Assembly (NCBI RefSeq): GCF_044647545.1
Contig: NZ_CP172818.1
Source of the DNA: Escherichia coli
Lineage (GTDB): Bacteria > Pseudomonadota > Gammaproteobacteria > Enterobacterales > Enterobacteriaceae
Length of the DNA stretch: 64,000 bases
Direction: 5' to 3' (one strand)
Positions 10,785 through 54,626 of the stretch are shown here, piece by piece. Every line of letters begins with the position of its first letter. Within the stretch, counting starts at the first letter, position 1. The notes under the pieces are model-generated. The model did not search any database. It saw only the letters and a list, made by a program, of their open reading frames with translations, and was not told where the DNA came from. Both the position numbers and the translations under genes were made by a program.

Positions 10785-11278
10785 TAAGCCCCCACGTAAT
10801 TCCCTGACAGATACCACTCATCACCCGATACAGCGCGCTTGCTGCTTTTCCGTAAACACTGCTCACGACGCGCCAGAAAATTGTTTCGTTCTGGCTGGGA
10901 GTGGCTTTCACGGAATGCCGCCATCCACACCGTTGCAGCACGACGGTATAAGCCCCTGGACTCCAGTTCTTCCGCCTGGCGGGTCAGGCACAAAATCACC
11001 CGGGGATCGTTAGTGCCGACATAGAAATTGCGCACAGGTCTGGTTTCACGAACTGGTTGTGGTTCCGGCTCCTGCGCTCTCTCAGTCAGGCGTGGGAAAT
11101 GTCTGCGTGTATCTCCTTCACAACGGTGAGCCACACGCCCACTCTGACGTAACTTGCTTGCTGACTGCAGAACGCGCTGCCGTGAGTAACCTGCAAAAGC
11201 ATCCGCAATGTCTCCGGAAGTACACCCCGGATGGGCTTCAATGAATTTCTGAACGTCATTTAACAGACTCATGATCAC
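10784..11278 (-). CDS. yfdN: Prophage PerC-family protein (putative transcriptional activator homolog)
   Basis: 164 aa ORF; C-terminal AEELESRGLYRRAATVW matches the PerC/Pch signature; ATGA overlap with upstream yfdO. Confidence 0.7.
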   Translation of the reverse strand: MIMSLLNDVQKFIEAHPGCTSGDIADAFAGYSRQRVLQSASKLRQSGRVAHRCEGDTRRHFPRLTERAQEPEPQPVRETRPVRNFYVGTNDPRVILCLTRQAEELESRGLYRRAATVWMAAFRESHSQPERNNFLARREQCLRKSSKRAVSGDEWYLSGNYVGA

Positions 11279-11643
11279 CCCCTGAATCCTGCCGGGATCT
11301 GGCTGTAGTCCACGTTGTCGTAACTGGATTTGAAGTACGGGTCTTCGCGTTTTTCGGTGTACGTGCTTACGGACGGCGATAAGCGCAGGGAAAGCTCATC
11401 CCATTTTTCCCGCAGCTTCGACGGGCTGAGCACGTTACGGCACCAGAACGGATCGCGGCTGACGCGGCTGTACATCTCGCAGATTTGTTTGTGAGTACGA
11501 CCATCCTGCACACACATCAGGCGAATTTCGTTTGCCCAGGCTGTCCAGTTCGGTTCTTTGGGACGAACCACCTCGCCGTCACATTCGGCGGCTTGCTCGT
11601 ACAGGGCGATGATTTTTTTCCAGAGCCACTGTGCGCAGGTCAA
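11275..11643 (-). CDS. yfdO: Defective phage replication protein O-like fragment (C-terminal domain only)
   Basis: Conserved-looking C-terminal ~145 aa of the 292 aa ORF; no ATG before it, putative TTG start gives about 122 aa; the N-terminal part of the long ORF is antisense to yfdP and looks non-coding. Confidence 0.5.
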   Translation of the reverse strand: MTCAQWLWKKIIALYEQAAECDGEVVRPKEPNWTAWANEIRLMCVQDGRTHKQICEMYSRVSRDPFWCRNVLSPSKLREKWDELSLRLSPSVSTYTEKREDPYFKSSYDNVDYSQIPAGFRG

Positions 11644-11964
11644 ATCATCCTGCGTTCCCCACTGGCGCTTTTTAGGGCTGAATACAACCGCATCAGGATG
11701 GCGAGTTAAAAACTCCTGTTCAGCCGTTTGCGTGTCCGGTTGCGAAGCGTCCGGACGAGAAGAGGTTTTATTCTCTGCGCTTTTGATTTTACGACGTCCG
11801 GACTTCACGGTAAACCCGTTGTTTCCCCCACAATGACCTGACGGGCAGATTTGATGCGCAGATTTTGACGGGTCTGAGTGTGACGGTTGAGAAAAGGAGG
11901 CTGCCGGGAGCTTCCAACGTTTTGCGGAGAAACATCGGCCTGCAATATGATGAGGAGCAGCAAA

Positions 11965-12327
11965 ATGGCTAGCGAACGCAGTACTGATGTGCAGGCATTT
12001 ATTGGGGAGCTGGACGGCGGCGTATTTGAAACCAAAATCGGCGCAGTTCTCAGTGAAGTCGCTTCCGGTGTGATGAACACGAAAACCAAAGGTAAGGTCT
12101 CGCTCAACCTGGAAATCGAACCATTTGATGAGAACCGTGTGAAAATCAAACACAAACTCTCATATGTTCGCCCGACTAACCGCGGGAAAATTTCCGAAGA
12201 AGACACCACCGAAACGCCGATGTATGTCAATCGCGGTGGTCGCCTGACTATTCTGCAGGAAGACCAGGGACAATTACTGACTCTTGCCGGTGAACCTGAC
12301 GGAAAACTCCGCGCAGCAGGTCGTTAA
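11965..12327 (+). CDS. yfdP: Prophage protein YfdP (unknown function)
   Basis: ORF 11887-12327; start chosen at ATG 11965 preceded by GAGGAG, giving the 120 aa form. Confidence 0.65.
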   Translation: MASERSTDVQAFIGELDGGVFETKIGAVLSEVASGVMNTKTKGKVSLNLEIEPFDENRVKIKHKLSYVRPTNRGKISEEDTTETPMYVNRGGRLTILQEDQGQLLTLAGEPDGKLRAAGR

Positions 12328-12392
12328 TATCGCTTTTAATAAACTGATTATTTATCTCATCACTGAATATCTTTATATAGTGAGGACTTATT

Positions 12393-13217
12393 ATGTCTCA
12401 GAACTTAGACGCAACCGCAATTAATCAAATCCATGCCCTTATTTCTGCTCAGGGTGTTAATGAAATTATCAATAATATTGGTGCCGATGCTGTGGCATTG
12501 CCTGAGAATTTCCGCATTCATGATCTGGAAAAATTTAATTTAAATCGCTTCCGTTTCCGTGGTGCACTTTCCACTGCCAGCATCGATGACTTTACCCGTT
12601 ATTCTAAAGATCTTGCAGATGAAGGCACCCGCTGCTTTATCGATGCCGATAATATGCGAGCAGTCAGTGTGCTTAACCTGGGTACTATTGATGAACCAGG
12701 TCACGCAGATAACACCGCCACTCTCAAACTGAAAAAGACAGCACCGTTCTCTGCTCTGTTGTCTGTTAATGGCGAGCGTAACTCCCAGAAGTCACTGGCA
12801 GAATGGATTGAAGACTGGGCCGACTACCTTGTGGGCTTTGATGCTAATGGTGACGCCATTCAGGCAACCAAAGCGGCTGCGGCGATCCGTAAAATCACAA
12901 TTGAAGCGAACCAGACCGCTGATTTTGAAGACAATGACTTCAGCGGCAAACGCTCCCTGATGGAGTCTGTCGAAGCGAAGACCAAAGACATTATGCCAGT
13001 GGCATTTGAATTTAAATGCGTTCCGTTTGAAGGTCTGAAAGAACGTCCGTTTAAATTACGCCTCAGCATTATCACTGGCGATCGTCCTGTACTGGTTCTG
13101 CGCATTATTCAGCTGGAGGCGGTGCAGGAAGAAATGGCTAACGAATTTCGTGATCTGCTTGTTGAGAAATTCAAGGACAGCAAAGTAGAAACCTTTATTG
13201 GTACTTTCACCGCCTGA
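12393..13217 (+). CDS. yfdQ: Prophage protein YfdQ (DUF2303 family, unknown function)
   Basis: 274 aa ORF with good RBS context; same strand as yfdP/yfdR. Confidence 0.7.
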
Positions 13218-13344
13218 TTTCATTACTGCAAATGCCCCTGCGGGGGCATTTATGGAAACGTAATTTACTCAATAATCGCCGGATGGTGAGGGATTCTTTT
13301 TACCAGAATTCAGCGCGGTGCAGCGCATATACGTGGAGAACAAA

Positions 13345-13881
13345 ATGTCATTTATCAAAACTTTTTCTGGGAAGCATTTTTATTATGACAGGATAAATAA
13401 AGACGACATCGATATTAACGATATCGCGGTTTCCCTTTCAAATATCTGTCGCTTTGCCGGTCATCTTTCGCACTTCTACAGCGTCGCCCAACATGCGGTT
13501 CTTTGCAGCCAGTTGGTGCCGCAGGAATTTGCTTTTGAAGCGTTAATGCATGATGCAACAGAAGCGTATTGCCAGGACATTCCCGCACCACTGAAACGCC
13601 TTCTTCCTGACTATAAACAAATGGAAGAAAAAATAGACGCCGTAATCCGTGAGAAATACGGGTTACCCCCAGTTATGAGTACGCCCGTGAAATATGCCGA
13701 TCTCATCATGCTGGCAACCGAACGCCGCGATCTCGGGCTTGATGATGGCTCTTTCTGGCCTGTACTGGAAGGTATCCCGGCAACAGAGATGTTCAACGTG
13801 ATTCCACTGGCTCCAGGCCATGCCTACGGGATGTTTATGGAACGCTTTAACGAATTATCGGAGTTACGAAAATGCGCATGA
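13345..13881 (+). CDS. yfdR: HD-domain phosphohydrolase (5'-deoxynucleotidase-like) YfdR
   Basis: ORF 13318-13881; HD motif region (H..HD...E) around SVAQHAVL / LMHDATEAY; start chosen at MSFIKTF (178 aa). Confidence 0.75.
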   Translation: MSFIKTFSGKHFYYDRINKDDIDINDIAVSLSNICRFAGHLSHFYSVAQHAVLCSQLVPQEFAFEALMHDATEAYCQDIPAPLKRLLPDYKQMEEKIDAVIREKYGLPPVMSTPVKYADLIMLATERRDLGLDDGSFWPVLEGIPATEMFNVIPLAPGHAYGMFMERFNELSELRKCA

Positions 13882-14234
13882 ATGTTTTCGAAATGGAAGG
13901 ATTTCTTCGCGGGAAATGTGTACCGCGAGATCTGAAAGTGAATGAAACGGATGCTGAATACCTGGTGCGTAAATTTGATGCGCTTGAAGCTAAATGTGCA
14001 GCACTGGAAAACAAAGTAATACCAGTGTCAGCTGAACTGCCGCCAGCGAATGAAAGTGTTCTGTTATTTGATGCTAATGGAGAAGGCTGGCTGATTGGCT
14101 GGCGTTCTCTCTGGTATACATGGGGGCAAAAAGAAACCGGAGAATGGCAGTGGACATTTCAGGTCGGGGACCTTGAAAACGTCAACATCACTCACTGGGC
14201 AGTAATGCCAAAAGCACCGGAGGCTGGAGCATAA
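13872..14234 (+). CDS. yfdS: Prophage protein YfdS (unknown function)
   Basis: 120 aa ORF overlapping the yfdR stop (translational coupling). Confidence 0.7.
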   Translation: MRMNVFEMEGFLRGKCVPRDLKVNETDAEYLVRKFDALEAKCAALENKVIPVSAELPPANESVLLFDANGEGWLIGWRSLWYTWGQKETGEWQWTFQVGDLENVNITHWAVMPKAPEAGA

Positions 14235-14389
14235 TGACCACTTTACCGATAAAGAACTGATTAAAGAAATCAAAGAGCGAATCAGCAGCATGGACGTGCG
14301 AGACAATGTTGAGCGCCGTGCTTATGAAATTGCTCGCACCGCTGCAGGGGACACCATCCTTGTGTTTATCCCTAAAACCACATAAAAAC
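14234..14389 (+). pseudogene. yfdT-like small phage ORF with lost start (1-nt frame change after the ATG); spans the attR core
   Basis: ATG at 14234 overlaps yfdS stop (TAATG) but reads only MTTLPIKN*; the adjacent frame encodes a start-less 48-codon ORF (HFTDKELIKEIKERISS...IPKTT*). Confidence 0.4.
14342..14356 (+). repeat. 15-nt copy of the argW 3' end (CTGCAGGGGACACCA): prophage attR core
   Basis: Exact match to the last 15 nt of tRNA-Arg(CCU), including CCA, about 3.9 kb from the truncated argW. Confidence 0.6.
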
Positions 14390-50798: not shown

Positions 50799-52001
50799 AT
50801 GGACCGCGTCCTTCATTTTGTACTGGCACTTGCCGTTGTTGCGATTCTCGCACTGCTGGTAAGCAGCGACCGCAAAAAAATTCGTATCCGTTATGTTATT
50901 CAACTGCTTGTTATCGAAGTGTTACTGGCGTGGTTCTTCCTGAACTCCGACGTTGGTTTGGGCTTCGTGAAAGGCTTCTCCGAAATGTTTGAGAAACTGC
51001 TCGGATTTGCCAACGAAGGGACTAACTTCGTCTTTGGTAGCATGAATGATCAAGGCCTGGCATTCTTCTTCCTGAAAGTGCTGTGCCCAATCGTCTTTAT
51101 CTCTGCGCTGATCGGTATTCTCCAGCACATTCGCGTGCTGCCAGTGATTATCCGCGCAATTGGTTTCCTGCTCTCCAAAGTCAACGGTATGGGCAAACTG
51201 GAATCCTTTAACGCCGTCAGCTCTCTGATTCTGGGTCAGTCTGAAAACTTTATTGCCTATAAAGATATCCTCGGCAAAATCTCCCGCAATCGTATGTACA
51301 CCATGGCAGCCACGGCGATGTCCACCGTGTCGATGTCCATCGTTGGTGCATACATGACCATGCTGGAGCCGAAATACGTCGTTGCGGCGCTGGTACTGAA
51401 CATGTTCAGCACCTTTATCGTGCTGTCGCTGATCAACCCTTACCGTGTTGATGCCAGTGAAGAAAATATTCAGATGTCCAACCTGCACGAAGGTCAGAGC
51501 TTCTTCGAAATGCTGGGTGAATACATTCTGGCAGGTTTCAAAGTTGCCATTATCGTTGCCGCAATGCTGATCGGCTTTATCGCCCTGATCGCCGCGCTGA
51601 ACGCACTGTTTGCCACCGTGACTGGCTGGTTTGGCTACAGCATCTCCTTCCAGGGCATCCTGGGCTACATCTTCTATCCGATTGCATGGGTGATGGGTGT
51701 TCCTTCCAGTGAAGCACTGCAAGTGGGCAGTATCATGGCGACCAAACTGGTTTCCAACGAGTTCGTTGCGATGATGGATCTGCAGAAAATTGCTTCCACG
51801 CTCTCTCCGCGTGCTGAAGGCATCATCTCTGTGTTCCTGGTTTCCTTCGCTAACTTCTCATCAATCGGGATTATCGCAGGTGCAGTTAAAGGCCTGAATG
51901 AAGAGCAAGGTAACGTGGTTTCTCGCTTCGGTCTGAAACTGGTTTACGGCTCTACCCTGGTGAGTGTGCTGTCTGCGTCAATCGCAGCACTGGTGCTGTA
52001 A
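50799..52001 (+). CDS. nupC: Nucleoside:H+ symporter NupC (CNT family)
   Basis: ORF 50760-52001; start chosen at MDRVLHF (400 aa). Confidence 0.9.
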
Positions 52002-52038
52002 GACCATACAGGGATAATTCCCCGGTTTTTTACGCCTG

Positions 52039-54228
52039 TTAATCAGCTAATGGCTGCGGGCGACCAATCAAATACCCTTGCAGATATTGCACCCCGAGCT
52101 TATGCAATAGCGCCTGCTGCTGTTGCGTCTCGACAAACTCAGCGACCACACTCAATGACTTCGCTTTCGCCAGATCGGTAATTGATCTCACAATCATCGC
52201 ATCCAGCGTATTCGTGACGATATCTTTCACAAAGACGCCATCAATTTTGATGATATCAGCCTGCAAACGTTTTAACCGTTCGTAGTTGGCATAGCCGGTG
52301 CCAAAGTCATCAATCGCAATCCGGAAACCAAACTTATGCAGTTGCTCGATGTTGTACATGCTGCTTTCTGCGTTAGAAAACGCCTGCTCCTCGGTGATCT
52401 CAAGAATGACCGCCTGCGGGGAGATGTGATAACGCTTAAACAGACGAATAATCCGCCCGGCAATATTCTTTTGCAGCAGCGTGAGCGGCATTAAATTGAC
52501 TGAAAAGCGCGGGCCTTTTTTGTCGCAAGGATGTGTTGCCAGCCACTTCAACAGGGATTCCAGCACTTGCAAATCAAAACGCGCGCTAAGGTTAAACTGA
52601 GCAATAAGGGGCAGAAACTTATCCGGGGTCATAATGCCGCCGTCATATTTCAGTCGCGCGAGGATCTCATCATAACCTTCACCCTCTTTGTTGCGAATTG
52701 GCTGGGCGTAGAGCAGCAAATCACCCTGATCTAACGCCGTACGAATGGTATTCAGCAATAGCACCTGTTTAGTGGTCTGCCCGGAAACCATCTCCTCTCT
52801 GCTATCCAGCGCCAGCACATGGTGATGTGCGCAGGATTGCTCCGCCAGCCAGCTTAACTGCCCCAACAAGGGTTGCAGGGTTTCCTGATTTCCATCAAAA
52901 CGCCCCCAGGCAGCACCATAGCCCATATCCAGCCCGGTATTGTTCCAGTGAATTTGCCGACTATTCAGGATGTTAACCATATGCTGGAGTCGCCCTTCCG
53001 TTTCCGGCCCGCTCAGCACTAACAGCAGTTCACTACCCGGCAATTGATACAACTTTTCGTTTTCCTGCATCAACGGCAGCAGCGTACGGTAAATTGAGCG
53101 GATACAGTGAACGCGCATCATTAAGCCGTAATGACGACTCATAAACTCAAGATTATCAATGCGCAGGCAACAAAAACTCTTGCCCGCCTCTTGCTCCGGC
53201 GCTTGCTCCAACGCACGAAAGTTGGGTAGGAGCGTTAACGGATCGGTCAGCGCCTGCAAATGCCAGCGGCGGTTAAGCCATTCACTACGATGATAAATAC
53301 GCACCATATAGAGCAGGCAAACACTAAAGGAAATCAGTACTGCGAGAATAAATGCCAGCGAATATTCGGTTAGTACCCCTTGCAAAAAGTTCTGGTTATA
53401 ATTCAGAAGGCAAAGCGTTGAAACAGCCCAGGTGAGATTTAAAAACGGATAGCGAAGCTTACCGACACCGAGGGTAAAGATGATAAAGAAAACAGGTACC
53501 AGGTAACCGGCAATAAAGTCATTTTCATACGGTGTGCACATCAGAAGTAGCAGCACGCTAAGAGCTGCCAGCCAGCTTAAGGTAAATGCGCGTTTCTCTT
53601 TGCTCAACGACGGAGCGATATCCCTGCGCCACAATATCTGTGCAAAGTGGGGACTTACAATCATGCGGGTGAGATAGTAAAAAAGCATGTTGTAAATCAG
53701 CACTGCGGTGAAAAGGCTTAGCAAATCAACGACCGTGAAAATGGCATCCGCATCGCCGAAAAAGGTGGATATCTTTAGCGGGAAATCAAAAAAGCTCCCC
53801 ACAAGATACATGCTGCATTTGATGCCGATCGGCGTCACCAAACCAAGCCAGAAAAGACGTTGCCAGACATATCGGCTGGTCAATCCATATCGCCAACGCG
53901 TCCCCAGCTGCCAGCGTAATATTGCGCAGGCACACAACACAACAAACGTCTGGCTGCCGAGCATGACCGCGGTCTGTAAAAAAGAGAGATGAAAGTTCCA
54001 CAGATTGGTGCAAAACATCCCGCATAAAATGGGAACGACACCGCGCCAGCCAAAGATAAACAAGATTGACAGCATTACGCACAGTGGCATCCACGCCAGA
54101 AAGATATAACTGGAATGGATAACAGCAAGTGGCGAAATAAAACGGGATAGCTGAATAAGTACCACGGTGAGCGTAAACGCTAGTGTGAATATCTTGATAT
54201 TTTTTATCAGGTTATGCTCCACAAACAT
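52039..54228 (-). CDS. pdeA: Membrane c-di-GMP phosphodiesterase YfeA/PdeA (MASE1 + degenerate GGDEF + EAL)
   Basis: ORF 52039-54402; start chosen at MFVEHNLIK (729 aa); C-terminal EAL domain. Confidence 0.85.
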   Translation of the reverse strand: MFVEHNLIKNIKIFTLAFTLTVVLIQLSRFISPLAVIHSSYIFLAWMPLCVMLSILFIFGWRGVVPILCGMFCTNLWNFHLSFLQTAVMLGSQTFVVLCACAILRWQLGTRWRYGLTSRYVWQRLFWLGLVTPIGIKCSMYLVGSFFDFPLKISTFFGDADAIFTVVDLLSLFTAVLIYNMLFYYLTRMIVSPHFAQILWRRDIAPSLSKEKRAFTLSWLAALSVLLLLMCTPYENDFIAGYLVPVFFIIFTLGVGKLRYPFLNLTWAVSTLCLLNYNQNFLQGVLTEYSLAFILAVLISFSVCLLYMVRIYHRSEWLNRRWHLQALTDPLTLLPNFRALEQAPEQEAGKSFCCLRIDNLEFMSRHYGLMMRVHCIRSIYRTLLPLMQENEKLYQLPGSELLLVLSGPETEGRLQHMVNILNSRQIHWNNTGLDMGYGAAWGRFDGNQETLQPLLGQLSWLAEQSCAHHHVLALDSREEMVSGQTTKQVLLLNTIRTALDQGDLLLYAQPIRNKEGEGYDEILARLKYDGGIMTPDKFLPLIAQFNLSARFDLQVLESLLKWLATHPCDKKGPRFSVNLMPLTLLQKNIAGRIIRLFKRYHISPQAVILEITEEQAFSNAESSMYNIEQLHKFGFRIAIDDFGTGYANYERLKRLQADIIKIDGVFVKDIVTNTLDAMIVRSITDLAKAKSLSVVAEFVETQQQQALLHKLGVQYLQGYLIGRPQPLAD

Positions 54229-54435: not shown

Positions 54436-54511
<76 letters not shown>

Positions 54512-54550
54512 ACGAGGCGTTTACGTACCAAATTTGCTGGGTGCAAAATT

Positions 54551-54626
<76 letters not shown>

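Follow-up and report, generated by a model that had tools for sequence, protein, structure and literature searches.

An unoccupied IS186 hot spot with a probable 11-bp deletion between nupC and pdeA in a non-K-12 Escherichia coli

In the window, i.e. the whole 64-kb stretch of E. coli DNA analysed here, the convergent genes nupC and pdeA (yfeA) are separated by a spacer of 37 bp that does not contain the IS186 element found at this place in K-12. We consider it most probable (about 0.85) that this is a natural IS186 hot spot of a strain other than K-12, that it is unoccupied, and that it has additionally undergone one recent, private and spontaneous deletion of 11 bp. In the comparison with strain FDAARGOS_497 (NZ_CP033850.1), window positions 14342-64000 align over 49,659 bases with 0 mismatches, and the single 11-bp gap in the spacer is the only difference. 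The features of the locus are the following:

50799..52001, plus strand: nupC CDS (nucleoside:H+ symporter), stop codon TAA at 51999-52001; from the ORF list, TIGR00804 and the FDAARGOS_497 annotation
52002..52038, no strand: nupC-pdeA intergenic spacer, 37 bp, IS-free; read from the sequence
52010..52011, no strand: junction of the 11-bp deletion, TAAAAAAGCCG missing, which is present in FDAARGOS_497 and in the left flank of MG1655; from alignment
52011..52031, no strand: remnant of the predicted terminator, GGG-ATAATT-CCCCGG followed by T6, with the 5' arm GCCG and the A-tract lost; from folding, terminator scan and motif counts
52012..52021, no strand: IS186 target GGATAATTCC, 10 bp, one copy in the window, duplicated by IS186 in other strains
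52039..54228, minus strand: pdeA (yfeA) CDS, MASE1-EAL c-di-GMP phosphodiesterase, intact, stop codon at 52039-52041; from the ORF list, EAL-family matches and the FDAARGOS_497 annotation

The nupC-pdeA spacer in the window and in K-12

The NupC protein scores 486.7 bits against the NupC/NupG model TIGR00804 (cutoff 442). The pdeA reading frame, which coincides with the position of the RefSeq-annotated pdeA (formerly yfeA), encodes a protein with EAL-family matches, and the identical protein in public assemblies carries the Pfam domains MASE1 and EAL. Coordinates of both genes were carried over from the annotation of the identical genes in FDAARGOS_497. The pdeA stop codon, TAA on the minus strand, appears as TTA on the plus strand, and the spacer enclosed by the two stops reads GACCATACAGGGATAATTCCCCGGTTTTTTACGCCTG. 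An initial sequence-only reading had placed these stops at 52001 and 52039 with a gap of 37 bp, which is borne out by the sequence together with the ORF list. The upstream neighbour in the window is mntH. Across the whole window, Rfam models matched tRNAs only, and none matched in the nupC-pdeA spacer.

The same reading had claimed that no IS186 lies between the two genes, and three marks of the element agree with this: the 23-bp terminal inverted repeat CATAAGCGCTAACTTAAGGGTTG has 0 matches in the 64-kb window with up to 3 mismatches allowed, there is neither an insL transposase gene nor any ORF in the 37-bp spacer, and the target GGATAATTCC is present in one direct copy versus two in the occupied genomes MG1655, 510016 and 08-00022. 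By repeats, transposase and target duplication alike, the window spacer is without IS186.

The copy that had been expected in MG1655 is indeed annotated there (NC_000913.3), as IS186C at 2514273-2515617 with insL3 (b2394) between nupC (b2393) and pdeA (b2395); an IS-free 37-bp spacer like that of the window is not present in this genome. Its element measures 1,339 bp, ends in CATAAGCGCTAACTTAAGGGTTG and the complement thereof, and is bordered by the 10-bp direct duplication GGATAATTCC. W3110 has the same nupC-IS186-pdeA arrangement, with the element annotated as an IS421-family transposase. In 510016 and 08-00022 the two IS186 ends are likewise 1,339 bp apart, and the same 10 bp are duplicated. 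The window and K-12 thus share the site, the convergent genes and the 10-bp target that K-12 has duplicated, whereas the window differs in lacking the element, in its single target copy and in flanks that are about 3% diverged. Public annotation already shows whether a strain carries IS186 at nupC-pdeA, and this IS polymorphism is known; our literature search on IS186 together with nupC found no paper.

With respect to the origin of the DNA, identity to MG1655 is 96.7% in one flank of the site and 97.3% in the other, versus 0 mismatches to FDAARGOS_497; the window does not derive from K-12 (MG1655/W3110), as had been proposed from the missing element together with the reduced prophage. A K-12-derived, IS-free engineered strain of the MDS type is excluded as source by the approximately 3% divergence of the flanks. 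At least 15 complete genomes match the last 24 kb (40000-64000) as a single block with a rounded identity of 100.0%, 24,012 record bases being aligned to 24,001 query bases, among them IMT16316 (which we take to be ST648, phylogroup F), ECONIH1, MS6198 and Ecol_881. Publications dealing with lineages ST131 and ST648 mention IMT16316. Further upstream, the window contains a CPS-53-like prophage remnant at 10505-14341 with a broken argW gene, in agreement with the reduced prophage that had been noticed from the letters.

The intact spacer as predicted terminator and IS186 target

In the closest genomes, the canonical empty spacer measures 48 bp, equal to the CDS spacing, and 48 bp also separate the genes in both of two public loci inspected among the 5,500 collection blocks that list the exact PdeA protein. 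The core of the empty spacer, AAAAAAGCCGGGG-ATAATT-CCCCGGTTTTTT, forms a GC-rich hairpin with an A-tract on one side and a T-tract (T6-7) on the other, and this intact hairpin sequence is present in the IS-free FDAARGOS_497. For the intact allele, a terminator scan reports 2 sites, one per strand, and RNA folding yields -21.6 kcal/mol (z -5.1 versus shuffles) for the nupC strand and -24.0 kcal/mol (z -5.5) for the pdeA strand. The intact hairpin is thus predicted to be a bidirectional rho-independent terminator common to the convergent nupC and pdeA, and it resembles other bidirectional terminators of convergent bacterial genes in its GC-rich stem, in the combination of A-tract and T-tract and in scoring on both strands.

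The same stem-loop, GGGG-ATAATT-CCCC (GGGGATAATTCCCC in FDAARGOS_497), is an exact match to the published IS186 motif, as the element targets 5'-GGGG(N6/N7)CCCC-3' and can be inserted either way round (Lee et al. 2016, NAR, PMC5009759). FDAARGOS_497 has no second occurrence of this motif in the 69 kb homologous to the window. The intact allele is a perfect instance of this motif and is used in both orientations, like the other hot spots of that paper, which also cites, as does PMC4618355, the IS186 hot spot at the lon promoter of saiSree et al. 2001. In Lee et al. 2016 (PMC5009759), only 7 of the 59 recovered IS186 sites were off the motif, with one or two deviating bases.

Occupancy was surveyed in the 5,424 complete RefSeq genomes of E. 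coli in which the locus is present. The site is contiguous in 4,460 of them, the K-12-type nupC-IS186 junction is found in 472 and an inverted IS186 junction in 465. In sum, IS186 is present in 937/5,424 genomes, although this value of ~17% is not a natural frequency, since the complete-genome set is enriched in laboratory K-12 derivatives. The K-12-type junction also occurs in non-laboratory isolates, e.g. 510016 and BUCT2930, and in strain 08-00022 the element is inverted, with the transposase on the opposite strand and an identical 10-bp duplication. IS186 has thus reached the site at least two times independently. Most complete E. coli genomes (~83%) are IS-free here, and this is evidently also the ancestral condition. 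As it is the majority state, the absence of the element says little about the lineage beyond being non-occupied.

As a rule, then, nupC and pdeA have a common 48-bp spacer with a predicted bidirectional terminator, AAAAAAGCCGGGG-ATAATT-CCCCGG(T6-7), whose GGGG-N6-CCCC stem-loop is targeted by the IS186 transposase. Because the stem-loop equals the exact target motif, the element has inserted here repeatedly and in both orientations, with duplication of GGATAATTCC in all copies examined. K-12 represents one occupied lineage, and the window either never had the element or has since lost it.

Origin of the 11-bp gap

Set against the canonical 48-bp empty spacer (FDAARGOS_497, IMT16316, IAI39, CE10), the window is equally IS-free, has identical sides and shares the T6 of FDAARGOS_497, but it is without TAAAAAAGCCG, so that the spacer has 37 bp, the 5' arm of the hairpin and the A-tract are absent and no terminator is predicted. 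Removal of IS186 and one duplicate from MG1655 in silico leads to AAAAAAGCCGGGG-ATAATT-CCCCGGTTTTTTT, and this reconstructed K-12 site as well as real empty sites keep TAAAAAAGCCG, in contrast to the window. Hence, of the proposal that the window represents a lineage with the empty site, the unoccupied state and the presence of the target GGATAATTCC stand, whereas the site is not pristine.

The allele was found in none of the collections searched. When 121 bp across the window junction were compared by megablast with 5,426 complete E. coli genomes, none matched identically over the full length (best contiguous match 92.4%), and an exact scan with the junction 22-mer had 0 matches in GTDB species representatives and 0 in JGI metagenome contigs. 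The 11-bp deletion therefore has the appearance of a private minor variant. On inspection, the junction ACA-TAAAAAAGCCG-GGG shows no microhomology and no repeat, which excludes that the bases were lost through slippage or a microhomology-driven event. Most likely, a single recent spontaneous event would have removed TAAAAAAGCCG, and with it the left hairpin arm and the A-tract, from an empty site.

Alternatively, the gap could be the scar of a mobile element, with an ancestral IS186 or IS200C being lost together with 11 bp of flank, either through imprecise excision or through repair of a break. This proven hot spot carries IS186 in both orientations (937 genomes), IS200C is inserted in the spacer A-tract of pig ETEC O139:H1 strains, which is the very tract spanned by the deletion, and arithmetically the window equals MG1655 minus 1,360 bp, corresponding to IS186 (1,339), one 10-bp duplication and 11 bp; besides, the third G of GGGATAATT could just as well belong to IS186, as its terminal G. 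Nevertheless, this scenario requires two events where one suffices, there is no IS remnant in the window, and the surrounding 50 kb are identical to at least 15 IS-free genomes with the intact 48-bp spacer. Judged from the mechanism of the IS4 family, the junction, which is without microhomology and lies off the transposase cleavage points, would fit neither precise nor nearly precise excision by the host. The flanks of the IS200C strains are only 99.2% identical to the window and carry T7 instead of T6; being less similar than FDAARGOS_497 in this way, the pig ETEC lineage is excluded as ancestor. Altogether, we regard an element scar as very unlikely.

The gap could also be artificial, introduced at a strong hairpin during sequencing, assembly, consensus calling or editing, in which case the true sequence would be that of the ordinary empty spacer of 48 bp. 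Palindromes with homopolymer arms can trouble polymerases and consensus callers, and the gap lies within a perfect palindrome of this kind; the uniqueness of the allele among all collections searched points in the same direction. Typical long-read errors, however, are homopolymer indels of 1-2 bases and not clean losses of 11 bp, and the absence of any mismatch or other indel over the 49,659 bases aligned to an independent high-quality genome speaks against a poor assembly. An error of this type seems unlikely to us, and we infer that the deletion is real.

A more specific version of a real deletion would be that the 11 bp are the repair scar of a break induced at the hot spot by the IS186 transposase or by the hairpin itself, which we put forward as a highly improbable idea. 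If true, it would show that IS186 targets erode into immunity at the cost of a shared terminator, and it would provide a natural case of what Lee et al. 2016 (PMC5009759) raised as seemingly easy for the host, namely “escaping transposition by mutating these sites”.

Predicted effects of the deletion on terminator and target

Returning to the preferred reading of a spontaneous deletion at an empty site, its first predicted effect concerns transcription termination. For the window allele, the folding energies are -9.2 and -9.4 kcal/mol, with z values of -0.7 and -0.5, which is no better than shuffled sequences, and the terminator scan of window positions 51500-52500 finds 0 terminator-like sites on either strand. 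A terminator was defined by a GC-rich stem of at least 5 pairs, a loop of 3-8 bases and a subsequent T/U run, and the window allele falls short of this definition: unlike bidirectional terminators of other convergent genes, it keeps a stem of only 3-4 bp, which on the minus strand is not followed by a U-tract, and it receives no call in the scan. No terminator is predicted on either strand because the deletion takes one arm of the hairpin. Consequently, intrinsic termination of the nupC and pdeA transcripts would be lost at this point, and read-through, if any, would end elsewhere, probably through Rho. Since IS186 splits the same hairpin in the above 17% of genomes, loss of the terminator is evidently tolerated; the deletion may be without phenotype, and at most a mild one is expected.

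The second predicted effect concerns the target. An exact GGGG-N6/N7-CCCC does not occur in the window, where the motif at 52010-52023 is AGGGATAATTCCCC, i.e. AGGG(N6)CCCC compared with GGGG(N6)CCCC in the intact allele. With AGGG-ATAATT-CCCC, 7 of the 8 flanking bases still match the hot-spot motif, and the deleted site should be a poorer IS186 target.

In practical terms, the site can be used as a marker of non-K-12 origin and is otherwise a routine strain polymorphism of little import. It illustrates how the stem-loop of a bidirectional terminator doubles as an IS186 hot spot in both orientations (~17% of the complete E. coli genomes, with the K-12 bias mentioned). Should the deletion be real, it would be a natural allele with which to probe the role of the terminator in the convergent expression of nupC and pdeA, and likewise to probe whether the loss of one G from the motif confers protection from IS186. 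Further variation of the spacer exists in other strains, as 2013C-4282 has a REP-containing duplication, and the spacers of RM12579 and BS-04 carry indels of 1-3 bp.

A prophage remnant in argW

The tRNA gene argW is split in the window, with foreign DNA following its 5' part and its 3' fragment lying 3.8 kb away.

Features around argW
10459-10498: argW, tRNA-Arg(CCU), 5' part; first 40 nt, ending in ...CCTAAGG
10505-14341: CPS-53-like prophage remnant, 3.8 kb; counterpart of K-12 yfdM'-yfdN-yfdO-yfdP-yfdQ-yfdR-yfdS-yfdT'
14342-14356: argW 3' fragment CTGCAGGGGACACCA, 15 nt, pawZ-like attR copy; adjoins dsdC

This remnant is the "reduced prophage" that the sequence-only reading had correctly seen here. 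It shares ~94.7% identity with the yfdM'-yfdT' stretch of K-12. With intS, yfdGHI, the tail-fibre pseudogenes, ypdJ and torI all missing, it contains neither an integrase nor an excisionase. Among complete RefSeq E. coli genomes, none has the remnant at more than ~96% identity. In FDAARGOS_497, one of the closest complete genomes, argW is intact and free of prophage, whereas it is broken in the window; to the right of argW the two are otherwise identical. ARAGORN and Rfam scans found no tRNA-Arg in the window, and the strain would be without an AGG-specific tRNA if its genome has no second copy elsewhere.

Both scans also located two tRNA clusters to the right of pdeA, which are intact and arranged in the same order as in K-12.

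tRNA clusters
54436-54626: alaX-alaW, two tRNA-Ala (GGC)
57327-57724: valU-valX-valY-lysV, three tRNA-Val (UAC) and one tRNA-Lys (UUU)

Divergence to the left of argW

Left of argW (1-10504), identity to FDAARGOS_497 is no longer complete: small indels cluster at about 290-420, where the intergenic DNA upstream of sixA is AT-rich, the sequence at 7394-7530, within a hypothetical gene between fadL and mlaA, is highly diverged, and identity over 7394-10504 is 98.8%. To the right of the remnant, in contrast, there are 0 mismatches. This pattern points to recombination with another lineage as the likely source of the segment that holds the remnant.

The nupC-pdeA spacer in other strains

Structural variation of several kinds recurs in the small nupC-pdeA spacer, making it a general hot spot and not one for IS186 alone. 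In a group of ETEC and edema-disease strains from swine, an IS200C copy sits in the A-tract of the nupC-pdeA terminator, and in strain 2013C-4282 this terminator is duplicated, with a REP contained in the duplication.

IS200C insertion
1500-2230 of locus L003 (NZ_CP062203.1; pig ETEC and O139:H1 strains): corresponds to 52008-52012 of the window
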